A stretch of DNA of 38,910 nt, from contig JAYWIR010000182.1 of NCBI GenBank assembly GCA_036172245.1, positions 1 to 38,910 of the forward strand, in the 5' to 3' direction. Origin of the DNA: Raillietiella orientalis. Its lineage: Eukaryota. Shown piece after piece: positions 3,701 to 27,374 of this stretch. A model generated the notes under the pieces. The model worked only from the letters and a program-made list of their open reading frames with translations. It searched no databases and was not told where the DNA came from. The position numbers and the translations under genes were made by a program. Every line of letters starts with the position of its first letter. Position 1 is the stretch's first letter.

Positions 3701-4211
3701 CACGCTCGTGATTCGGCCCAACCGGTTTCAGACGGAAGTCAAAATCGCCTGCAACCAGATGGGCATTCCGCACGCCTGCCTCGGTCAACCAGTCGCGATG
3801 GAGGGCAAGGAAAAATTCTTACCTGGCCCTCCTGTTCGTCAGGTCCGCTCCGCTCGGGGCGTAAACGTTCGTAATGATAAGGTCGATCGAGTCGGATCAG
3901 CTGAGAGTCAGCTGGCCGACACGACCGTGATCGTCGAACCGAACTGCACGGGCGGCGGTCTCGATGGCGGGCCGAAGCAGGTAGGCGACACCACAACTTC
4001 TCGATGTTCCACACCGATACCACAGCCACCCTCCGTAGATGCGTTCGATCTCCTGCGCTTGTTCTGCAGAGATCACTTGGATCTCCTGCAGCAGCACAAG
4101 GTCGAACGATCCTAGAATAGCGGCCCTGTCTCGTCTCCTGCCGGCGTTTATCATGCCGTTCACGTTCCAAACGGCGATGCGCACACGACGGCGGGAACAG
4201 ATTCCCGGCAT
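797..4211 (-). pseudogene. Copy B ORF2 (APE-RT-CCHC), disrupted
   Basis: ORF pieces 3897-4211 (WNVNG, LLQE), 3306-3788 (GDFD, IDH, SDH), 2739-3053 (KAPGEDGL, NWHPIT), 1905-2729 (AFDSVD, GIRQADSLSPLLF, YADY at 2217-2228, KYFGVP), 1350-1901 and 970-1359. Several in-frame stops. Confidence 0.92.
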
Positions 4212-5950: not shown

Positions 5951-6036
5951 ACACGAAGCCTACACCTAGGGACGGTTCCCTGCACGAGGAGCACCGAGGA
6001 AACACGTCCGCTCTAGCCGACGTAAAGCTTGCGATT

Positions 6037-8339
6037 TTCACCCGGATTTCTCCGAGTCGTTTATTAAAAAAATAAACTATGTAAACAAATTATTAATGGC
6101 TGTGGCAATGCTCCAGCGAGAAGCTAAGAACCACGGCGCCTTCCAATTCAACGGTTTCTAGAACGGTACGGTCCACCAAGGCAGCAGGGGAAAGGGAAAA
6201 AACAAAAAAAATAAACAAAAAAAAACAAAGGATGGGAGGGAACGGGAAGGGATCACTGTTGCTCCTGGGGACGCATCATCCCTCTCAGGATGCTGGCAAG
6301 CTCTTGTTTGTTGTGAACATCCTGGAGTAGCCATCGCGACGCCCTCCTCAGGAATTCGGAGGCGCACTGGATGGCTTCCTGATCGCTAGGTCCTCCCGTC
6401 GCCTTGCTCCAGGCGGCGACGATCCCACGAAGGAAGCACAAGGCTGCTATCGAGGACGCTCGCCGCAGGGCGTCAGCAACGAAAAAGGCTTTTAGTGCGT
6501 CCCTGTAGTTGCTGCAAGGGATACCGATGGCCGCGGCAAAGCGGAACCAAAGGGGCCGAAGGGCAACACAATCCACTAGGAGGTGGGGGAGGGACTCCCG
6601 TTCCCCGCACCTCACACAATTTGGATCCACCGCTCCCCATGTCCAGTGGTGACGATGGGCGTTGCAGGGGAGTCCACAGTGTTGCCACAGGAATGCCGAC
6701 TCTTGCAATTTTAGAAGGAGGATGGAAGTGTTCATAAGAATCGGGAGCCACTTCAGATGTTCAATCGGAACACCCAGCAGCGCTCCTCAGCGCAGAAGTC
6801 CATTAGGAGGCGTACTCGGGGACGCAGCATCAGTTAGCTGGCCCGTCTTCCACTCTCTCTGCTTCTTCTCCTTCCCGGAGATTTTTATTGTAACCTCCCA
6901 CTTCGCCGCAACATCGCTGTCCTGATGTTTCACTAGGGAGTCCAGCGCAGCAGCGAAGGGGGTTCTTCCTGACCACGCTCTCTTCTTAGGATCCTCCAGG
7001 ATCTCACGGAGCGTGCAACTTTTGTAACACCCAAACAGGAACCTTCGTTCCTGATGGGAGGGTTGCAAGCCGAGCTGTCTCCACGTGCGAACGGTTTCCT
7101 GCAACCAGGCACTACCGTTCGCGGGGATACAGGTGATCCATCCTTGATTTTTCCTTGCCAGCGCAGCCATCCTCCGTAGCTGAAGCCCACATCGGTTGAT
7201 GCGGCTTCGATGGAGTGCAAGAAACGACGTTAGTTCCGTCTTGCCGGTGGCTTGCTGAAGGAGGAGACGTGCAGGGACGCACCAACAGGTGCATCACAAC
7301 TCCGGCACAATTGCCAAAATTCGGAACTGGAGCTACTGCTCCAGCCGCTCCAATGTCAGGAGGCCGAGACAACCGTCCCGACGCGAAGCGCACAAGTCCT
7401 TCAAGCGGACTCGGGTCCTCCCGTTGTCCTAAAGGGCGATACGGAGGATGTCCTTCGTCCGCTTTTTGATCCTCTCTGTGGGGGGGCAAACAGAAAGCAG
7501 GGAACGGAGGAGAGGAGCCGCGAACATGTTCCATACCGAGGCCCGTTCAGGCAGGAAAATCCTGAAGCCTCGTAACGTGCCGATAGCCGTCTCTACATTT
7601 TGAAGGCAGCCGGACCACGCTTCCGCAGTTGAGTAGTCCCCCAACGGCACACCAAGGTACTCGAAGTACCTCACCGTGAGGATCCCTAAACGGACCCAGT
7701 CCGTCTGCCCTGCCCACGCCGCACCAACTGGCATCACGGACGACTTCGCCCTGTTCACCGTAAGCCCGGTTCCTCGATTCAGCAGGTCGAAGAACTTCTC
7801 GACCGTTGAAGCCGGGGTGGATATAGGGAGCAGTAGCAGGAGGTCGCCCGCATATGCTGAAACAGCAGGCGTTCAGGCGCATTCATGCGGCAGGTGCGCC
7901 AGAGTTTCCCTGTACGCTTTCAGTACCAACTCAAAGTAGGTACTGAAGAGCAAGGGGCTCAGGCTGTCTCCTTGCCGTATCCCACGTCGCACTTGCACGC
8001 CGTGAACAGTATGCCCGCTAAAAGTAACATTGATTAGCGCATCGCGCCAGCTATAGCCGGTTTTGTGGTTGCGGACGCCCCCACCTCCTTCGCCACTGAA
8101 GGCGACGTTGCTGCCGCTTCCTGGCACTCCACCTTCTCTAGAGGCGACGTTGCCGCCGCCACCTGGCACTTCATTTCTTCAGTAGGCGACGTTGCCACCG
8201 CGCCCTGACACGTACTGGTAATCGCGTCAGGCATTGCTTCCTCTTCGACCACCACCACACACGAAGCCTACACCTAGGGACGGTTTCCGGCACGAGGAGC
8301 ACCGAGGAAACACGTCCGCTCTAGTCGACGTAAAGCTTT
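6037..8339 (-). mobile_element. Copy C: internally deleted LINE (5' UTR and ORF1 start fused to the RT C-half, CCHC finger and complete 3' UTR)
   Basis: 8057-8339 matches B 5749-6030, and about 7440-8053 matches B about 1815-2427. YAGD at 7843-7854, finger CVRCGERESLPHLLVDC, ORF2 stop at 6253-6255, U-rich tract at 6197-6229, AATAAA at 6060-6065 (minus strand). Confidence 0.9.
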
Positions 8340-9675
8340 CGACTGCGTCGACCAGGAGCTCCTCTTGGAGCTCCTGGAACGCTTGGGATTTCCATCCGTC
8401 TTGCTGGCCTACCTGCGCTACTGCAGGCGCTTTGCGCTCATCAATATCAATTTTAACGGCCGACACGTGTTCGGCGTGCCGGTTCGTCGTGGCATTCGGC
8501 AGGGTGACACCCTAAGCCCCCTGCTCTTCAGCATCTACTTTGAGTTGGCGCTGAGAGCATACAGGGAGACTTTGGCAACCCTGCCGAGCTCGTGTTCCGG
8601 CACGCTTGCCGTGTCGCCCTATGCCGACGATCTTCTGCTCCTGCTTCCCGGGTCCACCGCGGCATCGGCGCTCCAGGATTTCTTCGAGTTGCTATATCGT
8701 GGGACAGGCGTCCAGGTAAACAGGACGAGGGCGGAAGGCGCACCCCTTGTTACGGCGATGCCCTTCCTCCAAAGGGCGCTTCACGGAAGCCGGAAGCCAA
8801 GGTGGCAAGTCTGCTGCCGTATCGCAGGCAGAGAGAAGATGATGAGCGGCTGGACCATGGGAGAGTTGACAGTTGCAACGACCCCAAGTCTCCAGCCGCG
8901 TGGATTAAGAAGATGGGGCGAGCTGCTCGGCATTCGATTGGATGACCTGAAGTGGCCCCCGGTTCTACTTGGATCCAGGATTCTCCCCCTGAAGTGGCAA
9001 CAATCGGCGCTTCTGTGGCTGCATTGGGGTCTACCCTGCAACGCGCGCCGCTTCCACTGGACGCGGGGAAGAGTAAATCCTGCGTGTGCCAGGTGTGGGG
9101 AGCGGGAGTAGCTCTCTCACCTCTTACTTGAATGCCCTGCCGTCCGGATTCTTTAAGATCGTCTGAAAACGGCCCTCCGGATACCGGATGGTGGCAATGT
9201 TGAATGTATCTTCAGTCTTGTCTTCGTGCGGGACGCTCTCAGTCCAGCCGCAGCCCTGGCAGCACTTTGCTGCATTCGTGGTATCGTGGCGGCCTGGAAT
9301 GATGCCGAAGATGAAGACTGCATCGTGAGGGACGTCATCGAGTATGCTTCGCGCTTCCTGCAGAGAGCTACCCGATAGCCCCATCTAGGAAAGCTGAAAA
9401 TGGAACTAGAAGGCATCCTGCAAAGAATGGGCGCTCCCAGCAGTTTTCTGTGATCCCTTCCCGGCCCTCCAAACTTTTTTTTTGTGGTTTGTTTTTCTAT
9501 TATATTTTATTTTTGTTTTTTCCCCCATCCCCCTCCACTGCCGAGGAGAGCCACACCGGGCTGCGTCTTGGTGTTCCGGCAGTTCCGGCATTCCGTGGCC
9601 GTCAGTGGGGCCTTGTACCACGTTCTGTATTGACCGTTGAAATGTTTTTAAACAACGTCCCGTCGTATCCGGGTG
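8333..9675 (+). mobile_element. Copy D: 5'-truncated, internally deleted LINE with complete 3' end
   Basis: Starts at the RT motif KAFDCVDQ, with GIRQGDTLSPLLF and YADD (8620-8631). It jumps in frame at about 8730 to the C-terminal region and has stops at 9109-9111 and 9154-9156. ORF2-end TGA at about 9451, then a T tract and the terminal motif at 9650-9674. Confidence 0.9.
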
Positions 9676-9699
9676 GCATCGCCGAATCCCTTGGCGAGT

Positions 9700-9712
9700 G
9701 GACGTGTGTTTC
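9700..9712 (+). promoter_or_regulatory. Conserved 5' UTR GGACGTGT motif (candidate internal promoter element)
   Basis: GGACGTGT(GT)TT is seen in E (9700), B (6000-6009, minus), C (8308-8317, minus) and H (20204-20215, minus), with variants in F (gcacgcgttttt) and G (ggaggtgttttt). The function is inferred only. Confidence 0.45.
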
Positions 9713-9785
9713 CTTCGCTCCCGAGTGAGTCGACAGGAAGCGGTTTTTTCTTGTGCTGTTTGGTGTGGAACATCGTTGGTGTCCG

Positions 9786-11542
9786 ATGGCAGCGATGCCT
9801 GAGGACTCCACGATGGAGGTAGGTGTGGGGGAGGCTTGCCCACCCCCACAGCCTACAGAATCAGGGGCGTTTGCCCCGGAATCGCCCTCGCCGCTCAAGG
9901 AGAGGAGCTGGAGCGCCATGGTGCCCGCGCCGGGCGCGGAAACCATGGCCGAGATGGCGGCCTACCGGGCAGCTGGGTACAAGCCCAGCTTGGTTTACCA
10001 GGTAGGCAATCTCTTTGACGGGCGAACTGCACGCGCTTTTTTGAAAGCGCTGCAGAACGCCAAAGTGTTGAAAAAGGACCTTCACGGTCTATCCGTGCTC
10101 AGCGGGGGTCAGCGCGTCGAGGTTGTCTGCAAGGACATCACCTTGGCGCAAAGCTTGATTAAAACCCCGCTGAACGTGGACGGACGCAAGATTCTACCAG
10201 TCACCATGGACCGCTCCGTAGTGGTCCATCTGACAGGGATCACCAGCCGCATGACGCGGTCTGCGGTTGGTGATCAGTTAAGAAAGTATGGGGATGTTCA
10301 CGCGCTATGGCCAAAGGCCACAATCTTCGATGGCTACGATAGCCTTTTTGGAGAGCAGGCCCCCGCGCGCGTGACGGTGAAGGAGAGTAAGCTTCCCCAC
10401 AAACTAGAAGTCAATGGCGAAGCCGTAGACCTCTGGTACGTGGGGAAACCCCGCTTTTGTGGCTACTGCAATGCAGTAGGACACTTGCGCAAGTTGTGCC
10501 CGAACATTGTGTGCCACTTATGCGGGGAGAAGGGCCACGTACGCCGCGTATGCCCTAAACGCCCCACTCCGGTGCCGCCTGCTGCAAAAAAAGCACAGGC
10601 AAAACGCGGTAAACTGGTCGAAAGACCAAAAAGAGATACTGGCCGGCAGCAGCCGCTAGCCCCTGTTCCTCCCACACAGGCGTCGGAAGAAAAACCCTCC
10701 GAAGACGCGGGAGACCAAGACGGCTGGCAGCTGGTCAAGGTCAGGAAGGAGAAAAAGGTGCCCCCGCGGAACCCGCGAAAGCGGTAAAAAAGACAGCCGG
10801 CAAGGCGAAAAAACCTGGGCCGCGCTCTAAGACCATGCGGGAGTGTACGGTAGCACTGGAGCGCATAGCTGTTCCCGAGATTGCCACCCGGGGCGACGAG
10901 CCTTCCCTCGCCGTTTCCGCCGCGCCCGAGGTTCGCGACGGCGAACCCTCTGTTTACACAGAGGGTCAGCCGCGCGAAATAGCGACGGTCGAAGCCGAGG
11001 ACGCCGCGTTCACTCAGGCGGCGGAGGAACTCGCGGCCACGCTGGCCGATCGTGGGAACCCCTCGCGCAAGGCCGTGCGAAGGCCGGCTCTTGCGAAAAA
11101 GGCCCCCACAGGTGAGTCCGAACTGGGGGCCGGAAGTGCATCCTCCTCCTCAAAGGCACCCCCCAGGAAGTCGGAACGCATGTCCCAGAAACCCAGGGGG
11201 CGCCTCCCCTCCACCAGCGAGGAGGAGAAGCAGGAAGCTAGCGGTAGCGTGTGAATCCCGGAGGGAGAACTCCCACGCTCGGAAGCCGTCGAGCCGGCCA
11301 TTCCCATGGAGGAGGGTGAGCAGGGGGGCGAAGTCCTCCCTGCAGTCACCGAGCCTGAAAGGCACGCCCCCATGGAGGAGGGCCAACAGGTAGGCGCGAC
11401 CCCACCTGAGGGTGACCCGTTCGACGCGCCGTTACCCATGGAGGAGGGGGAAAAGATGCACGCAGCGCCTGACCCTCCTCCTCCACCTAGCGTGCCGCCC
11501 CAACAGGTGGCGGACGCCGCATCGCCATCTTCCCAGGAATAA
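9786..11542 (+). pseudogene. Copy E ORF1 (zinc-knuckle protein), one frameshift and one stop
   Basis: ORFs 9753-10787 (CGYCNAVGHLRKLC, CHLCGEKGHVRRVC), 10835-11254 (frameshift near 10770-10790) and 11306-11542 (in frame after TGA at 11252-11254). Confidence 0.88.
11304..11460 (+). repeat. 66-nt (22-aa) PMEEG repeat, three units, in the ORF1 tail
   Basis: cccATGGAGGAGGG with ATG at 11306, 11372 and 11438. Degenerate homologues lie near 24565-24710 and 35080-35160. Confidence 0.85.
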
Positions 11543-14500
11543 CACCTGGGCTCGCCAGTCGCCGTCGGATTCGCGCCGCCTGTTGCAACGTCAACGGGCT
11601 GCGCGACGACGGTAACAGGCGAAATACGGCCGACACCCTGCGTGAGCTCGACCTGGCCCTGCTGCAGGAGATCCACGTGATCACCGCAGCAGACGCCCGG
11701 GAGATCGAGACGATCGCGGGGGGTCGGTTGTATTGGCGGTGCGGCCTCCGCAACACTTGCGGTGTCGCGTTCTTCGTGAAGCCGGCCATCGACGCTCCCG
11801 TGAAGGGCGTGCGCTTCGATGACGTCGGTCGGGTCGGTCAGCTGATTCTCAGCTGGTCCGTCTCGATCGAATTGATCGTCACGAATGTGTACGCCCCCAG
11901 CGGTAAACAGGGATACAGCGATTGTACCAGGCTGATGGAATCCCTGAAGCGCGACTGGCTGGCGGACACGAACGTGCGGAAGGCTCACCTGATAGCGGGA
12001 GATTTCAATCTCCGTCTGCTAACAGGTGAGCCAGAAACACAAGAGAACGCGATGAACGAGTTGTGCGCCGCCATGCGTGCGCGCAACTTGTTCGCGGGTG
12101 AGAGGGGAATGGTCCGCAGCATCGACCACGTCTTCCTCGACGCTGACCTGTGTTCACGGGTCGGCAAACGGGGTAGGGTTGCGTCGACGTTTTCGGACCA
12201 TTCCCGGTTAATTTTCGAGATGCGGCCTCGCGACAAGGGACCGCCATCCAGGGATTGGCGTCTGCCAGGGGACTGGACGCGACTCTTAGGTGCGGAAGAA
12301 CACCTTCGCGAATACCTTAGAGGCGTCACGCTCCGGAATCTCCAGGACTAGGACCTTTTTAAGGAATCGCTCCGCGAGTTCTGTGAGCAGTTCCCCCTGG
12401 ATCGCCTGTTCCTTGGATTCCGCGTGGGTGTTTGCAACCATCGGGCCTATTTACAGGCTCGTAGGTACGAGAGAACCCCTAATGTCCGTCGCCTGGCCGA
12501 GTACCGCGCCGGGGCCGAACGCCAAGCCTGGCAATCCGGGTCGGCCAGCTTGCTGGACGACCAGGGCCAGGAATGTTCGTCCCCGGCGTCATTACGGCAT
12601 CTTGTGCGGAGTTTTTATTCCTCCCTTTACGCCAGGGAGCCCCCGGATCGAAACGCCTGTCTGCCCTTGCTTCCGGATGGCGCCCTGTCAATAGGGGAGG
12701 AGGAGATGGGAAGCCTCGACGAGTTTTTCACCACCGGCGAAATTCTCGCCGGTTTCAAAAGGCTCAAGAGGCGTAAAGCTCTAGGGGAAGACGGCTTGCC
12801 CGCGGAGTTCTTTCAGAGCTTCGCGGAAGAGCTGGCACCCCTGCTGCTTATGTTGATCAGGCTGATCCGAGACGAAGGCAATGTTCCCGCCTCGTTTCGG
12901 TCAGCCAGAGTGAGGCTCCTTCCGAAAGGGGGAGACCTCAGGGATTTAAAGAACTGGCGTCCGATCACGATCGTGAATACGGACGCCAAGTTGATAGCAG
13001 GGCTATGGGCTTCGCGTCTGGGGCAGGTGGCAGAATCCGTAATTAGCCCGGAGCAGACTTATGCTGTTCCCGGGCGAAGTATGGATGCCAACCTCTTCTT
13101 CGCAAGCACATGGGTGCACCTGCAGAGAAGAGAAAAGAAAGGGATAGGGGAAGTCGGCAACCCCACATTGGGGACGCCAGCCGGGCTGGGAAGGGACCCC
13201 CGGGGGGGGAAGGGGGCCCTAGCGCTCGCAGTCGATCTCCACAAGGCGTTCGACTGTGTAGACCAGGAACTCCTCTTGGAGCTCGCGGGTCGCATGGGCT
13301 TTCCACCCTCCTTGATTGCCTACCTGCGCTTTTGCTGGCGGAATGCGATGATTACCGTCTCTTTCAGCGGTCACAAGGTGCATGGCGTGCCGGTGCGGCG
13401 GGGCATAAGGCAGGGAGATAGCCTCAGCCCCCTGCTCTTCAGCACCTACTTTGAGTTGGTGCTGAGAGCGTACAGGGTGACTCTGGCCCCTTTCCCGAGC
13501 TCGTGCCCCGGCACGCCCACCGTTGCAGCGTACGCCAACGATCTTCTGCTCTTCTTGCCAATGTCCACCCCGGCAAAGGCGGTCGGAGACTTCTTCGATC
13601 TGCTCAGCCGCGAGACCGGACTGCAGGTTAACAGGGCGAAGTCGTCGGTTGTGCCAATAGGTGCGGCGTGAGCAGGGCAGCAGGACTGGGTCCGTCTGGG
13701 GATCCCCACGGCGAGGTGCTTCAAGTACCTTGGTGTGCCGTTGGCGGACTACTCCCCTGCGGAAGCGTGGTCCAGCTGCCTCCAAAAAGTCGAGACGGCG
13801 ATCCGCTCATTCCTGGGAGGCAATTTTCACTTGCCGGAACGTGCCGCGGTTTGGAACGCCTTCGCGGCCCCCATCCTCCGGCCGTTGCTTTTTGTTTTTC
13901 CCTCCACCGTGGAATCCAAGAAGAGGACGAAGGACCTCCTCCGTATCGCCCTTTTGGGCAAGGGGAGGCCCCGATTCCCACTGAAGGACTTGTGCGCTCT
14001 GCGTCGGGACGGCGGTCTTGGCCTCCTGACGTTGGAGCGCGTGGAGAAGCAGCTGCGGTGGCGAACCCTCGCCATCGCTGCGAAGATGTGGTGCACCCCT
14101 TGGTGCACTCCAGCCCGCCTCCTGGCCAGCCGTGTGTCCCGGTGCGATGGACTCGCGTCTTTTCTTCTCAGCCGTGGCGGGAAGATGCGAAGATGCGGCC
14201 TACTGCTCGGGAGCATGGCAACGTTGGCCAAGGAGAACAGCTGGATGGTTTGCTGCCCCGCCAACTCCCCCGCCTGTCTGGAGGAGAATATTGGAACGTG
14301 GGCAGTAGTTAACCAGAGACGCCACGAGACGTGGAATCGTCTCCGATGCAGCTTCTACGCTTGCTGCACGCTGTGGAATCTCCTGAAGAGTCCAGCAAGA
14401 TGCAGGTGGGCAGATACGACCTGCCTAGCTACGGCGCTGCCCTTCCTAAGGAGGGCACTTCACAGCACCCGGACGCCAAGGTGGCAAGTCTCCTGCGGCA

Positions 14501-15127
14501 TCGAGGGACGCGAGAAGTTGATCAGCGGCTGGACAACAGGAGAACTGGCCGACGCCACGACTTCGAGCGTCCAGCCGCGAGGATTAGCAAGATGGGGCGA
14601 GCTGCTGTCCATCCCCAGGGATGAGCTGAAGTGGCCCCCGGTGATGAAAGAATCCAGGATCCTGCCCCTTGAGTGGAAGAGTCGGCGTTGCTCCGGTTGC
14701 AGTGAAGTCTTCCCTGTAACGCGCGCCTCTTCCACTAGACGAGGGGAGCTGTGGATCCTGCGTGTGCCAGGTGAGGCTAGAGGGAGTCGCTTGCCCACCT
14801 TATTGGGGATTGTGCTGCCCTCCTACTTCTTTGGGAACGGTTCGGGACGAAGCTCGGGCTCCCTACGGGCAGCACCCCCAGAGACGTTCTTCGACTCCTG
14901 TTCGTGAAATACGCACTGCAGCCATCGCAGTCTTGTGCTGCGTCCGTTGCATCGTGGCGGCATGGAGCGACGCCAACAACGAAGGAGTGAATGCAAAGGC
15001 GAGAGATGTCATCCCGTATGCCCAACGCTTCTCGCGGAGAGCTGCCGGATGGCGTTAAATGGAGAATATGCAGACAGACCTCGAGGGCTTCGTTCGACGG
15101 ATGGGCCCTCTCCACAGCGAACAGTGA
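11542..15127 (+). pseudogene. Copy E ORF2 (APE-RT-CCHC, about 1190 codons), disrupted
   Basis: The start ATG is degraded to ACA. Motifs CNVNG, LLQE, NVYAP, GDFN, IDH, SDH, KALGEDGLPAEFF, NWRPIT, KAFDCVD, GIRQGDSLSPLLF, YAND (13531-13542) and KYLGVP. In-frame stops at 12349-12351 and 13669-13671, frameshift near 14678. Confidence 0.93.
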
Positions 15128-15301
15128 TCCCTTCCCTGCCCTCCAACTTCTTTTTGTTTCTTTCTTTTTATTTTGCTTTTTGTCTTATCCCCATCCCCCT
15201 TCGCTGTCGGAGAGTGCCACGCCGGGCTGCGTCCCGGTGTCCCGACAGGTCCTGTGTTTACGGCCGTGATGGGGACTCGTACCACGAATGAAGAGTTTAC
15301 A

Positions 15302-15326
15302 AATAAACGCCCCGGGCTTTCCCGGT
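15302..15326 (+). terminator. Element 3'-terminal AATAAA plus stem-loop
   Basis: AATAAAcgcCCCGGGctttCCCGGT. Homologues at 75-99, 6040-6065 (minus), 9650-9674, 22623-22647 and 35406-35430 (minus). Confidence 0.7.
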
Positions 15327-15332
15327 TGACGA

Positions 15333-17961
15333 CGCCGAAGCCCGACGGAAGACGTTCCAGGGGAAACTGGTAGCAAAACTCGCGGAGTGAGCACTTCATT
15401 TCTCCCCAGTTCGCGAGCGTCTCATGATGGAATCCTCGCAGGAAGGCGCGCAGATGTTCGCGCGCTCCTGCGAGTCGCAACCTGTCCCCCGGCAGGCGCC
15501 ACGCTTCAGAGGGTGGAACTCTGTCGCGCGGATGGATGTTGATCACTAGCCGAGGGTGATCGGACAGCTCCGACGCAATTGCTCCTCGATTCCCCACCCG
15601 CGTTCACAAGTGGTTATCGAGGAACACGTGGTGGATTCTGCTAGTCATCCCGGCTTCATCGGCCAACATGTTGCGTGTGTGCATAGCCGCACAGAACTCG
15701 TTGAGCAATTGTGCTCTTATGTCGGGCGCTTCCGTCAGTACGCGGACGTTGAAGTCTCCCGCTATCAGATGCGCCCGCCGCACGCCTGCTTCGGCTAGCC
15801 AGTCTCGCCGCAGGGCTTCAAAGAACGCAGTGCTTTCTGCGCGCCTGTGGCTGGGGCAGGGCGTTTACACGTTCGTGACTACGAGTTCGATCGATTCGGA
15901 CCACTTGAGTACCAGTTGTCCGATTCGACCTTCCTCGTCGAACTGTGCACTGCGCACCGCATTGGCGACGGCCGGCTTGAGCAAGGAGACCACTCCCCGG
16001 GAGTGGTCTCCTCCACCACGCCAAAGTAGCCTCCACCCTGTGAACCTCTCGATTTCCTGGACGTCCTCTGCTCTGAGGGCATGCACCTCTTGGAGAAGTG
16101 CCAAGTCGAAAGGTTGCAGGGTGTCGGCCACGCTACGCCTCTTGCTTTCGCTACGCAGCCCGTTGACATTCCAACAGGCGATACGCAGCTGCCGGCAAGA
16201 GGCGATTCCATGCATCATACTAATGATGGTGGTGGCGTGTGCATTGCCGCCTCCTGTTCGGGAGGCGGCTCGTCGTTGTCCATCTGCGGTGGTGGCGTTT
16301 CGGCAACGACCGGAACGTCTGCAGCCGGACTGAGGTCGATAGGAAGGACGGACCGGATGCTGTCGATAGAGGGATCCCGCGACCTCGCGGACATCGCCTC
16401 CTCGCTATTCGAGCGCATCTCCTCCTGCTCAGCCTGAGGGGGAGCGACGCTCATAGGGTTGCGCGACTTCCGGCCCGCCTTCCTCTTCCGAAGGGCGACG
16501 GAGGGAGGGTTTCCGGCTTCCGCCTCGAACCCTGAAGTTTCCGGGCCCTTCACTTCTGCCGGACGTCTGACGGCCTTCCTTGCAGCCTTTGGCGTCTGCA
16601 TTAAGGTGGCCGCGAGTTCCTCCGCCGCCTTCGTGAAGTTTTTCTCGTCGCTGCTGCTCGCGTGTTTGTCGCAGGATTCCTGCGGCGGTTCGGTGGCGTT
16701 CGCGACGATTGCGGGATTCGCGTTCGCCGATCGACGCTCGATCGACGGAACGCGCTCGATTGTAACGCGGCATTCCTTTATGCACTCGCGCGGCGGAATT
16801 TTTGGTTTGCCGACCGCGGGTTTCTTAGGAACGCTCGCGTTCTGATTTTTTGAGTTTTTTGTGGGGATTTTTTTTGTTTTGTTTTTAATTTGTTTGGGTT
16901 TTTTGCCGGAGACGATTTTCCAGCCTTCCTCGTCGGCATTTGGATCAGAAGCCTCCTTTTGAGGCTCCTGCTCCTTGTGCACGACTTCTTCTGAAGTCGG
17001 CTTTCCATCGCTCTTTGCTTTAAATTCTGCCTGCTTCTCCTCATTTGTCGAAGGGGCTGAAGGCGTTGTCGCGGCGTTTTTCGGGCACACAGCACTAGTG
17101 TGGCCCTTCGCGCCGCAGGTTGGGCATGTGGCATCCGGGCATCTCTTTTGAAGATGCCCGAATGTGTTGCACAGACCACAGTATTTTTCCTTCCCCACGT
17201 ACCAGAGGTCGACGAGCTCGTCGTTGACTTCAAACTTGTGGGGAAGTTCTTTGTTTTCACGGAGAGTTACGCGCGCGGCCACTCGCCCACTGAATGCGCC
17301 TCGATAAGTAAAGGCGTTGGGCTGTTACCACATCGCGTATATCTTCGCGAATTTGTTGATTTCAGTGCGGATGGCTTCATCGGTCATCCGCACCGTTGTA
17401 CCCGTGAGGTGGATCACCATAGAGTGATCCACCGTGTGTGGGAGGAGATTCCGCCCTTCGAACGGAACGGGCGTGCAGAGCAGTTTGTGTGTGAGCGCTG
17501 CATCTTTGCAGATCAGCTCCACGAACTGCCCGCCGCTCCGAATCGAGAAGCAAAGAATCTCCTCGTCAGAGATTCCCATCCTACGGATGGCGTTTCCAAA
17601 TTTCCGCGTTGTAAGCGGTGAATAAAGATTTCCTACCTTGTAAAGGAGGGCTGGGTTGTAGCCCTCCTTTATGTAGGCCTGCACTTCGGCGGCCACGTCC
17701 GGCGGAGCCGCCGCGGCCACCTTATTCCACGCCCTCGCCGGGGTGGCGGGGGCTGATTTTCTGGTGGGGCATGACCCCACCTCCATAAGTTGGGGAGACA
17801 TGGGCCTCACGTCTCCCGTCGCAGGTACTGCGGCGTCTTCAGGCATTTGTGCCTTCGAACGGCAGCACTTCCACACACGAAAACTTCCTTCTCGGTTACG
17901 CTCGCTGGAGCTCACGAAAAACGCGTGCGACCGCGGCGCAGGTTCGCCGCTCGTTAACCCG
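15333..17961 (-). mobile_element. Copy F: 5' UTR, ORF1 and complete APE with no RT, convergent with E
   Basis: ORF1 17846-16215 has one stop at 17325-17327 and knuckles CGLCNTFGHLQKRC and CPTCGAKGHTSAVC. APE 16218-15333 has WNVNG, LLQE, GDFN and SDH and ends at ERLPSGFGV, then runs antisense into the E 3' UTR. Confidence 0.92.
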
Positions 17962-19110
17962 GCGCGAAGGGTTTACGAGAGCGGACCGGGTTTTTTCGGC
18001 TTTTCGCTCTTCTTTTTTTCTGTTTTCGCGGGTTCCTGGTTGGGAACCTTTTTTTGCTTTCGGGCTTTTACTACCTGCGAGCTTTCTTCCCCTTCCACTT
18101 CATGGGAAAGCTTATCCTCCGGCTTTTCCGCCGGAGGTGAAGGTGCTGGCAGCTTCTGTCGGTCACTTTCAACTTTAGGTTTTGCGAACTTTCTCGCCTT
18201 CTTCAGCTGCGCTTATTCGGCGGCCGTTGGTACCGAAATGGGGCGCTTCGGGCACACGCGCCGAACGTGGCCCCGCTCCCCGTACATGTGGCACTGTATA
18301 TTCGGGCAAGTTTTGCGATGGTGACTCATTGTATTACAGTACCCGCAGTAGTGGTGTTTGTCCTCGAACCAGAGGTCTACCGGCTCTTGGCATACATCCA
18401 GCTTGTGAGGTAGCCTTCCACCCTCGTTCACGGTTACACGCGCGGCGGCCTGTCCCCCGAAAAGTCTATCATAGCCGTGAAAAATCGTGAATTTAGGCCA
18501 CAGGGCGTGCACCTCACCGTATTTTCTTAATTGTTCACGAACCGCAGACCGCGTCATGCGGCTGGTGATGCCAGTCAGATGGACCACTACGGAGCGGTCC
18601 ATCGTGACTGGCAGGATCTTGCGCCCGTCCACGTTCAGCGGGGTGGTGATCAGGCTTTGCGCCAAGGTGATGTCCTTACAGACAAACTCAACGCCCTGAC
18701 CCCCGCTAAGCACGGAGTGGCCGTCAAGATCCTTTTCCAGAATATTGGAGTTCTGCAGCGCATTTGTGAAGGTGCGTGCAGTTCGCCCATCAAAGAAGCA
18801 GCCTACCTGATTAACTAGGCTGAACTTGTGTTCAGCTGCCCGGTAGGCAGCCATCTCGGCCATGGCCTCCGCGCTGGGCGCGGCCACCATGGCGCTCCAG
18901 TTCCTCGCCTTGGGCGGCGAGGGCGATTCCAGGGCGGACGCCCCTGATTCTGTAGGCTGTGGGGGTGGGCAAGCCTCCCCCACTTCCACCTTCATCGTGG
19001 TGTCCTCAGGCAAGGATACCATCGGACACCAACTATGTTCCACACAAAACGCACAAAGAGAAAACGCCTTTCTTCCGACTCATTTGGGAGCGACGGAAAA
19101 ACACCTCCGT
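17962..19110 (-). mobile_element. Copy G: 5' UTR and the first two-thirds of an E-type ORF1
   Basis: ORF 18213-19043 aligns with E ORF1 (GEACPPPQPTESGA, PLNVDGRKILPVTMDRSVVVHLTGITSRMTRSAV) and has degenerate knuckles. It is truncated at about 17962, where it joins ccgggtt and the F 5' UTR. Confidence 0.9.
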
Positions 19111-20228
19111 CCCAACCGAGCTCTCGGGGTTGAGATCGCAATGCTCGCGAGCTTCCGTCGGCTCGGTAGCCTGAGGCTTCGCCACGACGCGTTTTTTCAT
19201 GTTTTTCTCCCCTTCTTTGTGGAGGAGAGAAAGAGTTTTCTGCGCATGCGCGCTCGCGATTTTCACAACGCTCTCCGAAGTTTTAAGGTTTTTCTCTCTC
19301 TATTCGCAGCGTTTATTTCGCGATGCGATACGCACTTCGTTCTTGCGCTTTTCGTTTTTTAAAAGGAGCTCCGGGCACGTTTCTTTTGTGTGCCCGGGGT
19401 CGTGGCACTAACGGCAAGCTGCCGAGGGACACTTCGTAAGGCGGTGATCCTCCTGCCCGCATTCCGCGCACACAAGCGCTTGCCCCGCAAAATACAGGCG
19501 GACGATCATTCCATCCACCTGCAGTCGCGTGGGCATTGCCTGGCGATCCGTCATCGTCACTCGCACCTGCGCGAGCCCGCTGTGGTGGTCTTCGAAACCC
19601 TCAGCAGGGTTTCGCAACCTCCAAAGCACGTGATCGGAGGCGAATTTTTCACAGGCATCCACGACCTGGCGGTCCGAAAGGCCCTTGCTCACTCCACTCA
19701 GCCGGACAACGAACGACTGATCCGTAGTTCTGGGGAGTATTTCTTGCCCACGAATGAGCAGCGGCGTGTGCAGGAAACGCTGCGTTAAAAGAGCGTCCTT
19801 AGTAAACACCTCCCAGTAGCCGCACCCACTCATGGGCATCAAGGACTCCATCTGTCCTTTTTGAACTCCAATCCGTTGGAGTTCCAGGCCAAAGTCGCAC
19901 CCAACCCGCTCAGGCATAAGCAAACTTACCTTATACCTGAGTGCAGGCGTGTAACCATTTGCTAACTACGCCTGCAGCTCAGGGCTGTTAAACGAAGGTC
20001 CCATTGTAGCCGCGAGGGCAGCGACCTGGGCGAACGTCCTCGCCGTCGGCGAGGACAGTGGCTCCTTGCTAGCAGCCAAAACCGCCATCTCAGGAGCAGC
20101 TACCGTTCCCTTCTTGAGGCTGATGTTCTTCTTTGCTTCCATTGCAGCACAGAAGCACAGCAGAACAAAAACCCAGAAGGGTCAGCCTACCGCGGTGCGA
20201 CGCAAAAACACGTCCTGACGCGACCGGC
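19111..20228 (-). mobile_element. Copy H: 5' UTR and a divergent third ORF1 type, 3'-truncated
   Basis: Frame from ATG 20142 (MEAKKNISL...RTFAQVAA...GYTPALRYKV) continues through ORF 19408-19923. Knuckles CAECGQEDHRLTKC and CR*CHDPGHTKETC; GGACGTGTTTTT at 20204-20215. Confidence 0.85.
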
Positions 20229-22650
20229 GCTGATGCGGGAGGTGGGAGATGTTCCTGCTTTTTTCCGCTCAGCAAAGGAGCGGCTAATGCCGAAAGGCGG
20301 GGATTTGCTCCACCTAAGCAACTGGCGTCCGATCACCTTGGTGAATTCGGACTTCAAGCTGTTCTCGAAACTTTGGTTCGCGTGGCTGGACAGAATCGCA
20401 GAGTCCTTGGTGAGTCCGGAGCAGAAGTATGCTGTTCCGGGGAGGTCCATGGACGCTAATCTCTTCTTCGCTCGATCATGGTTCAAGTTGCAGGAGCGCG
20501 TGGCTTAGCAGGGACAGGCAACCGAAATCGCCGCTGCCAAAGGTAAGCGGCGGTGTTCAAGGCACGATGGAACGTCGGGGGCTTGGCGGTCCCCTTTGAT
20601 CTCTGCAAAGCGTTCGACAGCGTAATCCAGGACCTCCTTCTAAAGCTTCTGGGACGCCTAGGCCTCCCTACGCATTTCATCGCCTACTTGCGCTCCTGCT
20701 GGCGCCACGCGTTATGCTGTATCTCTTTCAGCGGGCGCCACGTGTACGGCATTCCCATACGGCGGGGTATCAGGCAGGGAGACAGCTTAAGCCCTCTGCT
20801 CTTCAGCATCTTCTTTGAGTTGGTGCTGAGGGCGTACAGGCTGACGCTGGCCAACCTGCCGAGCTCCTGCCCGGGAACACCGGCCGTGGCCGCCTATGCT
20901 GACGACCTTCTCCTGCTGCTGCCCATGTCCACCCCGGCGTCCAGGCTCGAGGACCTCTTTGAGTTCATTCGTCGGGGAGCGGGCCTGAGCGTCAACAGGA
21001 CGAAATCAACCGTTGCAACGGTTGGCTCTACGTGGGAGGGGCAGCCCGACTGGATCCGCATTTGGATCCCCACAGCAGGTGCTTGAAGTACCTCGGCGTT
21101 CCCTTGGGCGCCTTCTGTTTAGCAGAAACGTGGTCGGACTGCATTCAGAAGGTCGAGAATGCTCTGGGCCCGTTCCAAGGCGGCAGTTTCTTCCATTGAG
21201 AACGGGCATTCGTGTGTAACATCTTCGTTGCCGCCCTTCTTTGTCCCCTTTTTTTTTTGTCCCCCTTCCTTCTCGGCTAAGCACCGGGAAGAGCGCCTGT
21301 TACGAAACGCCTTGTGGAAACCGGCGAGGTCCAGGATCCGTTTCAGGGACTTGGCGGCTCCTCGGTATGTTGCTGGATTGAAGATCCTGACCTTTGACTG
21401 CTTGTGTAGTTCCGCATGCTGGCTCTTTGTTCCCAGCTTTGGACTACTCTCTGGTGTGCCCCAGCGCGGCTGCTGCTACGGCGCCGCACGGGTGGCGACT
21501 GACAGCATTGGTTGCACCAGTGCACAACGCGCATCTTGGAAGGATTCGGTTACCCTTTGAAACAGCTCGCCTCGCTTCTGGGAATGCACACGGGGATCTC
21601 CTCCCCGACGACGAAGCTCAACGCCTAGAGGCAGGAATCCTTATCGTCCTGGTCAGCGCAACCTGTTGTGTCACGTTTGGAACTCCGTTGTGTGAACTTT
21701 TTCCCATACTCTCCAGTGGGAGAGGTGTTGGAAGACTAGAACCAGCGGACAAGCTTAGGCGCTATGCCATTCGCCGAAGCACTGTCTGCACTGATGGTGC
21801 GAGACGACAGTGATTTACCGGATAGGTGGGAGTTCGCTTGCAAAATTGCAGGCGAAACCGGACCGCTTGGCGGCTGGCGGATTTACAAGCTGGCACACGC
21901 TGCCACACATCGCTTTCGTGCCAGGCGACATCTTCGGCATAGCGAGCTCCTCTGGGTGCCAACCGAAGAACTTGTGGTCTTTTCTGCGTGTTTGCAAGCG
22001 ACTTTCTTCCACCTTCGTTGGTAAGATGGCGCATTTCTGCTGGTGCATTGGGGTCTTCACTGCAACCAGCGCGCGCACCTGGTTTCCGAAGGATTTGCGT
22101 CCCCGAACTGTGCCAAATGCGGAGCGATGGAATCGCTTCCGCATTTGCTGTCTAAATGCGGTGCCCTCCAGGAGCTGCGGCGGCGGTTGTCTTCATCATT
22201 TCTGCACCCCGAACGCTCCAAAAATGATTGGATGCGCCGCTATTCCTCGCGTGGCGGTCTTTGTCTAGAACCGGTCATCGCAATCATCTACTGCGTTTGC
22301 GCCACTGTCACGGCCCGCCACGTATTCCAGATGCGAGCAGTCCCATCATAGGTCCTCGAGACGGCAGCCTGCAACATGCAACTTGCTGCCGAGTGGCCAC
22401 ATCTTGAAGCGGAAGTACGGAGATTGCAGGAATTCACCGGCAGTTCTGAGATTAGGAACGGCTAAACTGCATACGTCGCCCTCCGACTTTATTTATTTAT
22501 TTATTGTTCCCTACTTGCCTTTCCAAACTCTCAGTGTGCCCTGCCTGAGTGTCGTGTACACGCTTTCCCATCTTCTGTTCCTCTTACCTGGAAACACATT
22601 TCCCTCATGATTTCATTCTATTAATAAACGTCCCGGCGCAACCGAGTAAT
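20229..22650 (+). mobile_element. Copy I: 5'-truncated LINE (RT to 3' end), degenerate
   Basis: PKGGDL..NWRPIT, KAFDSV, GIRQGDSLSPLLF, YADD (20895-20906), finger CAKCGAMESLPHLLSKC. Terminal aataaacgtcccggcgcaaccgagt at 22623-22647. Confidence 0.9.
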
Positions 22651-22669
22651 AAAAGACGACGCTGCAATC

Positions 22670-24185
22670 TTTGATGAGCGCGCTACGGTGCTCTTCCGTC
22701 TTCTGTTGGTAGGCCAGTTTCATCTGTTTGCGATCCACCTCGTTCCACCTCATTTTTTTCTTTCCCGCGCTCGTCGCTTTTTCGCAAGAAGTTCAGGAGG
22801 CCTTTTTTGCACAGTGTTTGGGGCAAAGGAGGGTCCCGTGTGTGACTTAGAGACTTGTGCGCCCCACGCAAGGACGATGGACTTGGCCCACTTGCGCTAA
22901 AGCGCCTGGAACCGCCACTTCTCTTCAGGACTCTCACCCTTTCGGCGGAACTGTGGGACACTTTGTGGTGCTTTCCATCATGCCTCTTGGCACAAAGAAC
23001 CTCCGGATTCGGCGTGCTTTCGTCGTTTCTGTCAATGCACTACCGCTCACAAACGCATTGCCTCTTTCATCTGCACCGCATGGCCTTTGTAGTTCGGGAG
23101 AACGTTTGGATCTCGTGCCTACTCGGTAACGACTCTGGATGGCTACACGAGTCAGTTTCCACGTGGGAAAAGGTCTACGTTTTGGCAAGCACAATAAACA
23201 CTTGCCTGGAAAGACACGCCCCCTGGACGCTGCATGAAATTTTGCACTCTCACGTTAAACTTTTAAAGGTTCTCATTACCCCATTTGCCCCAATGCTGCC
23301 CTTCCTTGGGAACTCCAGGAACAGCAGCGAGCAATAGAAATGGAAAGTGTTTTGCACCATGGACGACAGAACACAAGTGAGAAAGGCGTAAACATCTCGG
23401 CAGCTGAGACGGCAAGTGTAACGCCCAACGGAATTTTATGCTAGAACGCGCTATTCGGACTATCTCCGGAGGAGATGAAGTGGCCCTCGGCGTCCTGGAA
23501 CAGTGGTTCTTTCTTTTTGAAATGGAAGGAGGTGGCGCTGCTTGTTTTATTTTGGGGTTTACACTTCAAAGCACGCCTCTCTCACTGCACATGTGAGTCT
23601 GTGGATACACCTTATGATCTGTGTGGTGAAAAAGGAATATTTTCCCACCTTCTTGTGGACTGCATCCCCTTTCGCCCGCTTTGAGTTAGTCATTCGACGA
23701 TGCTGAGCATTTCCGGAGGCAGCCGCAGGGATATCTTCACGCGCCTGTTCACGAGAGTTGGCCTTCCTCCAGACGCGTTTGTTGCAGCGCTATGTTGCAT
23801 TTGCATAATCGTGTCGACCTGGCACGCATCCAGGAGAAGAGGTCGAAATGGCAAGGATGCCATCCATCGGTTATGCATCTTTGTGCAGAGCTTTTTCAGG
23901 TAACCCAACTTGGACGCTATCACAACGCAGTTTGCTAGGATCCTAAACAGGAACAAAGGGACCCCTAGACGCGCACTGTGATTTCTTCCCCGCCCTCCGA
24001 TACTCAAAATGCATTTGCCCTCTCCACGTTGGAACTATTTGTTTCTTTTTGTTTCCTTCTTCCTAGCCCCTCGCGATGGAAGGACCTTGCCGATCGAACA
24101 CTGGCAAGCAGCAGGCTGTCTTGATGTGGTGAGCCCTTGGGTTCACCATGCGTAAATTAACTGTATATTTATTTGAAAAAATAAA
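22670..24185 (+). mobile_element. Copy J: older degenerate 3' third of ORF2 plus 3' UTR
   Basis: ORFs 22855-23337 (LCAPRKDDGLG), 23475-23684 (MKWP..CGEKGIFSHLLVDC) and 23700-23903. ORF2-end context ctgTGAtttcttccc at about 23978, then a T tract and AATAAA at 24180-24185. Confidence 0.82.
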
Positions 24186-24189
24186 TGGT

Positions 24190-26600
24190 CCAACATATGC
24201 GGGTGCAATTGGAGAGGCTCACTCGCGCGACAGGCTTGCCGGCAGCGAGGATGCGGCCTACGAGTAGGCGGTGGAAGAGCTGGCAGCAACTCTCGTCGAG
24301 CTTCAGAACGCCTCGTGGAAGAAGGTACGTAGGCCGGCACGGGCAAAAGTGGCCACCGCAGGTGAGTCCGACCTGCAAGGCCGGAAGTTTGTTGTCCTCC
24401 TCGGAGACACCTTCGCGGAAATCAGGATGGAAGTCCGAGAAGACGAGGAGGTGCATTTCAGCTCCGAGCGTCGGGGATGAAATGGAAGCCGTGGACATAC
24501 ACATCAGCGTGAGAGCCCAAGACTTGGATCTCCCGCGCGCGAAAGCCGGCGAGCAGGAGATTCCCATAGTGAGGTGTGTGCAAGGGAGAGAAGCACTCCT
24601 GCATGCGCCGAGCTGAACAGTCCGCATCCATGGAGGTGGGCGTACAGGTTGGCGAAACACCACCTTCGTGCTAGGAGCCGGAGACGTCCGCACGTATGGA
24701 GGAGGGTAAGCAGATGGGCGAAAAGCCACCCCCTTCTAGAGTCCCGCCCCATCAGGTGACGGGAGCTACACCGCCAGGTTCCGATGCATAAAACCTGGAC
24801 TCGCCTGTCCCCGTCAGATCCGCGTGGCCTGTTGGAAAGTCAACGGGCTGCGCAACCATGGCAAGAGACGTCACACAGCCATCATCCGGCGTGACTTCCA
24901 CCTGGCGCTCCACCTGCAGGAGATCCACGAGATCACCGTAGCAGACGCCCAGGCGTTCAAAACTTTCTCGAGGGATTGGTTTTACTACGGATGCGGCGCC
25001 CGGAACACCTGTGAGGTCGTGTTCTTTGTCGAGCCAGCCTTCGACGCTGCCGTTGAGGGCGTGAGCTTCTAGGACGACAGTCGGGTCGGCCAACTGACTC
25101 AACTCATGGTCCGAATCGATCGACCTCATCGTCACAAACGCTATCAACGTCAGGCGGAATTTCAATGATCTGAATGTGTTGCAGAAAACCTTTGATGGCG
25201 ACTGGCTGGTGGATACGGACGTGCGGAAGAACCATCTGATAACAGAGGAATTCAGTGTCCGCGCTCGAGGATTCCTTTGGTAGCGTGAATTGCGACGCTG
25301 TGGGACTAGCCTGCAGCTGAGCGGAACGAAGTCTGTTCATCCTTTTTATCGACTGCACGTGAGCTGGGTGGCTGGACTGGATCCGATTGGGAATCCCCAC
25401 GGGTAGGTGCTTCAATTATGCTGGTATTTCGTTAATGGAGTTCGGCACAGCAGGAGACTGATCCGACCGTCTCGAAAAATCATCGTTGGCGATCGATTCG
25501 TTGCAAGAAGGCAGGTTTTATTTGCAGGAACGGGTGGTGGTTTCAATCGCGTTTCCGGTGTTCTTCTGCTCCCTGCTTTTTGTTTGCCCACCCCTTACTT
25601 CATGAAGAGGAGAACAGCAGTCCTCCTGTAGACATTCCTGTGGGGCAAAGGGAGTTCCCGCTTGCGGTTAAAAGACTTGCGTGCTCCACGAGGGGACGTA
25701 AGAATTGGCCTCCTCAATTTGGAGCTCCAGGAGCTTCGGCACCGATTCCGGACTCTCGCCCTTGCTCGGAATTCTGGGACAAGCCTTGGTGCGCCAAAGC
25801 AAAGCACTTATTGTAACGAGCCTCAGGATTCGGAGGACGATCGCGTTTCTGGAGAAGCGCTGCGGCAGGCTCACTCTATGGAGACCGCAGCTGCAGCGAA
25901 TGGAAGTTGCGTTCCGGGAGAACGCCTGAATCTTCGATCTTCCCGGAAACTACTCCGCATGTTTGTGGTAGTCAGTCTTCAAGTGAGAAAAGATCTACGT
26001 CCCGAGTGATACAAGAAACAGTTGCCTGAGGAGGCACGCTCGCTAGACGCTGCAGTAATTCGTGCAATCCCGAAACAAGCTTCTGTGGGAGCAGGTAATC
26101 CCTCATGTTCCAGTGCTGCCTTATTTGGTGTACTTTAAATACAGTAACAAGCAGTGAATTCGGAAAGTGTCTAGCTTCATGGGCACCGGGACGCCATCGA
26201 TACAGGCGCGAGCATCTCGGCAGTTAGCGGAAGCTGCGACCCCGTGTGTCCCGCCCTATGGACTTTTACGTTGGAACGAGCTACTCGCATTACCTCAGTA
26301 GGAGATGAAGTGGCCTCGAGCGTGCTGGAACATTGGCTCCCTTCCGCCGAATTCACAGGATATGTCGTTACCAGTTTTGCACTGGAGACTACCCTGCAAA
26401 GTACGCTTCACTCACTGGACTAATGGAAATGAGGATACCCTGTCTGCACAGTGCGTATACGAGGGAACTTTCCCCACTTTCATGTGAACTGCATCGGTTT
26501 CTTCCCCCTCTAGGATGGTTTTGCTGCAATCCTGAACAAAGACGAAGGCACACCCAGGGACATTTTATGGAGACGTTCCTTATGTACCTCCGTGTCCTGT
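24190..26600 (+). mobile_element. Copy K: highly degenerate, internally deleted LINE (ORF1 tail, APE N-half, post-RT region)
   Basis: EELAATL and MEEG-like repeats, WKVNGLRN..LQEIHEIT (24824-25072), a jump at about 25260 to LRLKDLRAPRGD (25662), and MKWP..LHWRLPC (26305-26487). Confidence 0.78.
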
Positions 26601-27374
26601 TGCAAATCATCATGAAAACCTGATACATGGAATTTCGCAGCTTTCAATTACATAGCGAGTCTCAGAATTTCAGATGACTTGATTGCCACTATGATTGGAG
26701 TAAACTTCTTTACCGGTCAATTGAGTTCAAGAGAGCGCCACTTTTATACACCAGAGTAAAAACGAAATACATTTTCAATTCCACTATAATGCTCTCTAGT
26801 GTGTGATGAGCTCTTTGAGGGAGCCGCTTGATGATTGGTCATTACGACTGCATAGAGTTATGCTTCAGAAACATCGACTTCTCTAATGAGACTTCTTCAG
26901 GCGGAGCCCTTATCTCTGCGTAGGTGGCTCCTAACATCTCCGGTTCCCACCAAGATTTCGTCACTTTACAGTAGGCATTCTTTTGGTGAAAACGATTGTA
27001 AATGCGCTGGCAAAGCAATGGTTTCTCTACAAAAAGTAACAGTTGAATTTCGTATTATTCTATCACCACTAGAATTCTCAAGACGCCTTGGGAAAGCCAA
27101 TTTCAAAAATTGCTAATTGCACTGAAAAAATCGGATTCTTTTACTTGCAAGCGAATATTTTAAAGGCTGTGATTTTGTCAGTGTTTTCTTGGTAAAATGA
27201 TGAGGTCATCATTAAACCGTCACCTTGCACGACAAATAATGACTTTCATGCATCACCACGGTACAAGCAGCAAGTAGACATGATTATTAGTAGTATGTTT
27301 ATTTTCAGTTCATTCCTTCACTACAAGCCAAAAAACATGAAAGGCTGTTTTCTCTACTCATGATTTCGGTTTCC

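Follow-up and report, generated by a model that had tools for sequence, protein, structure and literature searches.

Why should two retrotransposons that lie tail to tail against pieces of their relatives break those relatives at the same codon? The question is raised by a 38,910-nt stretch of the Raillietiella orientalis genome (assembly GCA_036172245.1, contig JAYWIR010000182.1, positions 1 to 38,910; hereafter the window), in which 1-26,300 and 35,200-38,900 form a pile of related pieces from retrotransposons that lack long terminal repeats (non-LTR retrotransposons), or long interspersed nuclear elements (LINEs), with 53-65% GC. In these elements, the second of two open reading frames (ORF1 and ORF2) carries an apurinic/apyrimidinic endonuclease (APE) domain followed by a reverse transcriptase (RT) domain. 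It is probable that a target-specific L1-like LINE lineage inserts at an 11-bp site, lying antisense in the APE-RT linker of sibling LINEs, and duplicates this site.

The two junctions lie at 105/106 and 15332/15333, as they stand in the assembly sequence. At each of them, a plus-strand LINE 3' end (AATAAACG, a GC hairpin of 5-6 bp and a 6-nt tail) adjoins a minus-strand APE fragment. The two fragments, designated arms A and F, end at one common codon, …R/S-G-F-G-V. The element map was obtained by tblastn and blastn of the window against E, the full-length element whose 3' end forms the second junction. The features needed for the comparison are listed below with their window positions and strands (UTR, untranslated region).

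1-105, plus strand: Z, a 3' end only, with AATAAACG, the hairpin CCCGGG-CGTA-CCCGGG and the tail TGATAA; 84.8% identical to the last 105 nt of E, its body lying left of the window.
106-116, plus strand: target 11-mer CGCCGAATCCC, reverse-complementary to the (R)GFG(V) codons in arm A.
104-799, minus strand: arm A, an APE fragment covering ORF2 residues 81-312, with 70% amino acid identity to E by tblastn; its 3' side is cut by Z, and its 5' side is cut at 790-799 against B.
About 797-6020, minus strand: B, full length.
3323-3333, plus strand (antisense of B): the linker site of B itself, CCCCAGATCCC, unoccupied and differing from the target at 3 of 11 positions.
8731-9679, plus strand: D, 5'-truncated, with the end of ORF2, the 3' UTR and the tail TGGCAT.
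9680-9690, plus strand: 11-mer CGCCGAATCCC between the D tail and the E 5' end, read as the left copy of the E target-site duplication.
9691-15332, plus strand: E, full length, 5,642 bp, with ORF1 at 9729-10787, ORF2 at 11491-14907, a hairpin-bearing 3' UTR and the tail TGACGA.
12414-12424, minus strand: the linker site of E itself, CGCGGAATCCA, unoccupied and differing from the target at 2 of 11 positions.
15333-15343, plus strand: target 11-mer CGCCGAAGCCC, reverse-complementary to the (S)GFG(V) codons in arm F, read as the right copy of the E target-site duplication.
15333-16266, minus strand: APE part of arm F, covering ORF2 residues 2-316, with 52% amino acid identity to E by tblastn (15325-16266).
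16267-17950, minus strand: remainder of arm F, with the inter-ORF region, ORF1 (homology at 16887-17852) and the 5' UTR; its 5' boundary against G is uncertain, at about 17925-17977.
About 17977-19128, minus strand: G, an ORF1 copy with 77.6% nucleotide identity to E, of which it is a sister; more LINE pieces continue rightward of it.

At the codon level, with a slash for the breakpoint, arm A reads …CGG GGA TTC GGC GT/T ATC ACC CGG… and arm F reads …TCG GGC TTC GGC GT/C GTC AAC CGG…. The sequences past the slash, TATCACCCGGG in arm A and CGTCAACCGGG in arm F, are in both cases the reverse complement of a complete plus-strand LINE 3' end. The breakpoint nucleotide is identical in the two arms, to within one ambiguous base. 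RT-bearing E (…GGA TTC CGC GTG GGT GTT TGC…) and B continue through the linker codon into RT. An earlier reading of the letters without database searches, the sequence-only reading, had described two plus-strand 3' ends fused to minus-strand APEs at one codon, RLPxGFG/V, past which RT-bearing E and B continue; tblastn and the codon-level comparison bear out the fusions, and the continuation of E and B stands as well. The description of the RT-less arms needs correction, as only arm F has ORF1. Arm A is an APE piece alone (residues 81-312), with 0 stops over 292 codons. Arm F comprises ORF1 and APE, yet it is decayed; it has 3 in-frame stops, 2 in APE and 1 in the ORF1 homology at 17325-17327.

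The 11-mer CGCCGAAKCCC has 3 exact matches in the window, all on the plus strand and each directly behind a 3' tail; conversely, 3/3 tails of the Z/D/E type are followed by it. Shuffling gives a mean expectation of 0.10 matches, and 0/100 shuffles reach 3. It had been claimed that the junction 11-mer is the reverse complement of the GFG codons and recurs between D and E at 9680-9690, and these counts confirm the claim. All three exact sites (3/3) are occupied. Four APE-RT linkers are present in the window: two are occupied and have the exact site, and the two unoccupied ones, those of E and B, are the diverged sites listed above.

The D-E junction has a tail and an 11-mer in front of a complete element. 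G and E begin at the equivalent 5' base (TTGG…GGAGGTG), and G is preceded by unrelated sequence (19128-19400) without the 11-mer. Thus, the E 5' end does not include the 11-mer at 9680-9690, because it is absent in front of the sister element. For the same reason, one part of a model proposed in the sequence-only reading, sense landing at 5' UTRs, is not retained. E, the only full-length copy of the Z/D/E type, lies between CGCCGAATCCC (left) and CGCCGAAGCCC (right), which are 10/11 identical; the left copy doubles as the 3' flank of D and its origin is ambiguous. The D tail sits at this left copy with an offset equal to that of the other two tails. The 11-mers flanking E are better read as a putative 11-bp target-site duplication, into the left copy of which D or E would then have inserted. 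The simplest reading of the order D-[11]-E-[11]-arm F would be repeated insertion at one site.

A candidate fourth junction between G and F (17925-17977) was rejected; it matches the 11-mer at only 7/11 positions, and the stretch also aligns weakly with the inter-ORF region of E. On the minus strand at 17925-17977, the ORF1 stop of G is followed by a tail-like 25-mer (TAAAC…CCGGGTTAACGA) and then by the 7/11 match, ahead of the F 5' end. G could be a deletion derivative that keeps only ORF1 and stands in tandem with F.

The proposed sequence of events is as follows. The lineage would include Z and E, and D would have been mobilised at the 11-mer site too. Its landing site would be 5'-CGCCGAAKCCC-3' on the future sense strand of the insert, antisense to the R/S-G-F-G codons, which lie about 75 residues behind the APE domain of the sibling. 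The element endonuclease would nick the sense strand of the host LINE just after …GGGMTTCGGCG, and the 3' OH of the nick would prime reverse transcription from the fixed RNA 3' end (hairpin and 6-nt tail, no poly(A)). Because priming starts from a nick in the host sense strand, the insert would come to lie backwards in the host, whose ORF1-APE part is thereby parted from its RT. A second-strand cut 11 bp away would duplicate the site on both flanks of the insert. Either copy of the site could then be hit again, which would produce head-to-tail pairs with an 11-mer between them, as in D-[11]-E-[11]-F. The sequences directly show one breakpoint in two host lineages, the 11-mer at 3/3 tails, E flanked on both sides, and arms that are not copies of each other. 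The positions of the nicks, the order of insertion and a nuclease rather than RNA pairing as the chooser of the site are probable readings of this arrangement.

Alternatively, both junctions could descend from a block that was copied and then diverged, either a single ancient tail-to-tail junction or a bidirectional composite of E and an inverted ORF1-APE arm. The colinear alignment of 1-709 with 15228-15936 across the junction (69.6% identity) and the minus-strand frame that stays open through both junctions would suit such a block. The alignment itself is uninformative, since it is expected in any model because the tails and the APEs are each homologous. Its two sides are unequal: the tails Z and E are 84.8% identical (89/105), but arms A and F are 63.6% identical (443/696 nt), with Fisher p = 1.2e-5 for tail-side versus arm-side divergence. 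Arm A is closer to the sense APE of E (79.1% nucleotide identity) than to arm F, and arm F is 63.0% identical to the APE of E. A single duplicated block would give equal divergence on both sides and would make A and F mutual nearest relatives; neither is seen, so the junctions are not one old duplication. These figures also support the earlier statement that the two RT-less APEs are divergent and do not stem from a recent duplication.

Other features do not fit the block either. Arm A starts at residue 81 without ORF1, but arm F has ORF1, and arm F has in-frame stops. D-[11]-E shows a tail and an 11-mer without any arm. A composite transcript would terminate in the antisense of a 5' UTR and would have no 3' hairpin end. 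The composite of E and F (about 8.3 kb), offered earlier as the mobile unit, is contradicted by arms of different lineages, of which A lacks ORF1 and F is decayed; the duplications that should flank the whole unit are not found, as the outer end of F adjoins the 3'-cut sister G, not a tail or a site duplication. The block or composite origin is thus very unlikely, and two related elements so appear, from these divergences, to have entered two different host lineages at the identical nucleotide.

A third pairing comes from outside the window. One public run, X1, contains part of the window DNA (share 0.17; contigs compared over 1-20000), and among the 15 joints listed of 31, one contig of this run joins a D-type tail (to 9678) to an opposite-strand E-type APE at 12427, with 107 letters on the shorter side. 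This combination of a D-type tail and an E-type APE is not present in the window, and its joint lies within 2 nt of the shared site. This further tail/arm pairing weighs against a copied block. With the different lineages of arms A and F, it upholds the part of the model in the sequence-only reading that supposed recurrent independent antisense insertions at a fixed APE-RT linker site.

The minus-strand frames 2-877 (arm A) and 15055-15603 (arm F) are open across the junctions into the antisense 3' UTR, for at least 35 codons in A and 96 in F. Open frames across both junctions may be due to chance in GC-rich DNA. Protein searches with the two read-through ORFs (F 15055-15603 and A 2-877) gave no match, and an exhaustive HMMER search with the arm A ORF (2-877) gave 0 hits at E ≤ 0.001. 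Among metagenome contigs, the E-type tail pattern had 0 matches, and the APE alignment pattern had 178 pattern matches, 0 of which were confirmed by tblastn.

Twin priming was considered for the adjacent sense and antisense LINE segments, which resemble twin-primed L1 insertions, and was rejected. Twin priming places the inverted piece on the 5' side of the sense piece and makes both from one RNA. In the window, the antisense arm is found 3' of a tail that is complete, and F, with 63.0% identity to the APE of E, belongs to another lineage.

What chooses the site was addressed by comparing modules among copies. The Z tail (…CCCGGGTGATAA) and the C tail (…TCCGGGTGAAAA) are about two bases apart, yet they are found at different targets, the 11-mer for Z and a 14-mer, described below, for C. 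B and the related copy B2/C are 92% identical in the 5' UTR and ORF1 and 90-92% identical in RT, and both are at the 14-mer. Over 797-2440 versus 6035-8060 (minus strand), B and C have 90-92% identity as far as E coordinate about 13918; beyond 14069 their 3' parts are unrelated modules with 47-68% identity. The 3' part of B (797-1349) is 95-99% identical to the inverted D (8731-9284, plus strand), 8 kb away. The D-type 3' module is thus present at both targets, the 11-mer for D and the 14-mer for B. These lineages are, as far as their sequence comparison indicates, mosaics in which 3' and 5' modules are mixed. The few copies favour the interpretation that the target goes with the protein-coding part and not with the 3' RNA module.

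RNA pairing could in principle act without a specific nuclease: an 11-mer read through onto the RNA 3' end would pair with any nicked complement. The read-through of target sequence aids exact insertion of R1Bm and R2. Consistent with such pairing, the junction 11-mers (10-11/11) are more conserved than the linkers among intact copies, and the tails are of fixed length and lack poly(A). It is opposed by the near-identical Z and C tails at different targets, by the presence of the D-type 3' module at each of the targets, with the 5'/protein module that B and B2/C share tracking one of them, and by the emptiness of two sites with 1 mismatch. Pairing as the sole guide is therefore unlikely, and this part of the model in the sequence-only reading, RNA 3'-end annealing as the guide, is not supported, on account of the tails and the D-type module. 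RNA pairing may be partly a sub-mechanism of the target-specific insertion proposed here and not a full rival. Because near-identical tails occur at different targets and the D-type module occurs at both, the endonuclease is favoured as the site chooser over RNA pairing, and read-through RNA pairing may still contribute.

Several points weigh against target-specific insertion at the linker site. The 1-mismatch 11-mer sites at 21772 (plus strand) and 23004 (minus strand) are empty, which means that recognition needs more than 11 bases or that there has been too little time. D is 95-99% similar to the 3' part of B, yet the 5' end of B is at the 14-mer target; this conflict calls for recombinant lineages or for mobilisation in trans. 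The source of the 11-mers may be the target, read-through RNA or the two together. The X1 joint is 2 nt beyond the window breakpoint and is known from tabulated positions, not from contig letters. The sample consists of 3 window junctions and 1 outside contig, which falls short of a census of filled and empty sites. The window lacks the severed RT halves of A' and F', as tblastn finds no minus-strand ORF2 match in it that starts at residue 317. With insertions only, the nested order would be G' ⊃ F' ⊃ (X-D, E), X ⊃ (B2/C, B), B ⊃ A' ⊃ Z, and under this order the severed RT halves would lie left of the window edge. Two joints are not simple insertions: the X-D junction (8729-8731), which needs a template switch or recombination, and the A-B junction (783-819, plus strand), where a 14-nt direct repeat, ATGCAGCAAAGTGC, surrounds 9 nt.

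These joints, together with the mosaic break of B and C near E coordinate 13950-14070, bring in rearrangement in general, by ectopic recombination, template switching or break repair at microhomology, or a collapsed-repeat assembly error. Against it stands the identical nucleotide, which is hit in both diverged arms and at one more place, each time exactly where a complete tail ends. A similar joint occurs in the independent run X1, and random repair would not reuse one 11-mer. Rearrangement or misassembly as the origin of the shared breakpoint is the least probable of the explanations weighed here. Insertion of a target-specific lineage at the APE-RT linker remains the preferred reading, and the rest of the pile was compared with it.

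A second antisense target is found among the B-type elements. The pieces concerned, in addition to B, are the following.

6035-8342, minus strand: C with B2, an internally deleted B-like copy.
8329-8728, plus strand: X, an RT fragment.

B2/C is apparently one internally deleted element, in which the 5' UTR and ORF1 start (8057-8342, 92% identity to B) are joined straight to ORF2 residue 614 onwards. The 14-mer TCGMAAGCTTTACG occurs on the minus strand at 6021-6034, between the C tail (…CCGGGTGAAAA) and the B 5' end, and again at 8329-8342, between the B2 5' end and X. Its reverse complement encodes the RT codons R-K-A-F-D. X starts in frame at this point, RKAFD/CVDQELL, and continues as CVDQELLLEL, a conserved RT motif. 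The 14-mer at both sites and the in-frame start of X from RKAFD lead to the interpretation that B-type elements entered X backwards at the KAFD codons, duplicating 14 bp that would now lie between tandem copies. This parallel case supports the pattern of site duplication proposed for E.

A third antisense target is indicated by a minus-strand element (RT at 36237-38155) whose 3' end, tail M (…AACAAACGACCCGGCTTGAACGGGTAAGAAA), stops near 35401, where it meets an antisense APE around residue 66. This joint spans 35385-35460 on the minus strand with 35214-35384 on the plus strand, at the edge of the low-GC DNA. The junction at about 35395 had been noted before as lying at a different APE position, and it does. 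Not every junction is antisense, as tail I, which ends at 22652 (AATAAACG, hairpin, GTAATAAAA), is followed by a sense-oriented RT from about residue 775 (22614-22760, plus strand). Among the six tails examined, 5/6 adjoin LINE coding sequence in antisense, or a duplicated part of such sequence, at 3 distinct antisense sites: the GFG codons of the APE-RT linker, the KAFD codons of RT, and a position near APE residue 66. The 6-pair stem of the 3' hairpin is common to five tails, with a double change at 1 pair only and weak covariation support.

The three sites suggest a wider picture, to which somewhat less than an even chance is given. A radiation of L1-like lineages may exist in this genome, in which each endonuclease has evolved its own 11-14-bp site in the coding sequence of siblings; these lineages would live at each other's expense, knock out one another and form a hyperparasitic guild with exchanged 3' and 5' modules.

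Regarding the identity of the elements, ORF1 of E contains a CCHC knuckle in Pfam, and its ORF2 contains Exo_endo_phos in 11491-12351 (E-value 8.1e-12) and RVT_1 in 12352-13671 (E-value 2.6e-20). By these domains, the window elements are APE-type non-LTR retrotransposons predicted to encode an APE endonuclease and RT. The ORF2 of E has 2 in-frame stops. The nearest solved protein is human L1 ORF2p, with E-values of 1.8e-37 for RT and 5.6e-08 for APE. In a search of 5.8 billion proteins, the E protein has one close relative (69% identity), and the remaining matches are RT proteins with <35% identity. An Rfam scan of the whole window, for example for a 5' ribozyme, gave 0 matches. A pyrimidine-rich run (CTTTTTGTTTCTTTC…) is seen at an equivalent 3' UTR position in several lineages (15135-15190 on the plus strand; 6184-6241, 9485-9523 and 35585-35625 on the minus strand). 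The DNA between the two blocks of the pile (26,300-35,200) has 39-47% GC. Its 26500-35000 stretch is without LINE homology and no Pfam family is above cut-off among its ORFs; a weak CNH match below the Pfam cut-off is the only Pfam signal in the ORFs of the 26-35 kb stretch.

The known target-specific LINEs insert in host RNA genes, microsatellites, telomeres, DNA transposons or LTR elements. LINEs of the Tx1 clade target fixed spots in other transposons in one orientation, and their tandem copies enclose the duplicated target site (PMC4494074). The same paper describes Tx1 in the piggyBac element Tx1D, Tx1-Mar in Mariner-N4_AMi, Tx1-9_AMi in Harbinger, and Tx1-8_Crp and Tx1-4_AMi in LTR retrotransposons, and credits target choice in target-specific LINEs mainly to the endonuclease (PMC4494074). 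By insertion behaviour, not by tree, the window lineage resembles Tx1: an APE-type LINE of the L1 group occupies a fixed place in a transposon, in fixed orientation, and its tandems sandwich a putative duplication. It differs from Tx1 in that the target is the coding sequence of a sibling LINE, between APE and RT and in antisense, and in that the element disables its relatives, including arm A, which is 21% diverged from the APE of E.

By layout, not by sequence, the pile also resembles the L1 clusters Zepp of Coccomyxa/'Chlorella' C-169 and ZeppL of Chlamydomonas, in which existing copies are targeted and tandem arrays of 3' ends are formed, as given in the accessible parts of their descriptions (PMC3446292, PMC8226300). 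As far as those parts go, GC-rich L1-type islands, nested insertions, many 5'-truncated copies and head-to-tail runs are shared, but the fixed codon and the antisense orientation in the window do not appear in them (PMC3446292, PMC8226300). With R1 and R2, the window lineage shares precise, repeated insertion in one short sequence of a multicopy target and a fixed 3' junction. It differs in that its target is another LINE, not a host RNA gene, and the R2 nuclease is restriction-like; the specificity of the R1Bm endonuclease is the subject of PMC1919474. In the literature searched, which did not cover the primary Zepp papers and supplements, no description of LINEs that target a fixed codon of other LINEs was found. 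By analogy, the window lineage probably works like a target-specific LINE of the Tx1 or R1 type, and what would be new is that the target is a fixed position in the coding sequence of sibling LINEs, entered in antisense.

If true, this would be a clear case of transposons that use and disable one another, the nuclease of the host LINE being severed from its polymerase. It would also account for dense, GC-rich islands made of LINEs only, without damage to host genes. If sibling lineages differ mainly in their 11-14-bp specificity, comparing these endonucleases would reveal how nucleases of the APE type come to be re-targeted. The pile would then hold a natural series of re-targeted APE nucleases, and such re-targeting would be of practical interest for RNA-templated, site-specific insertion.

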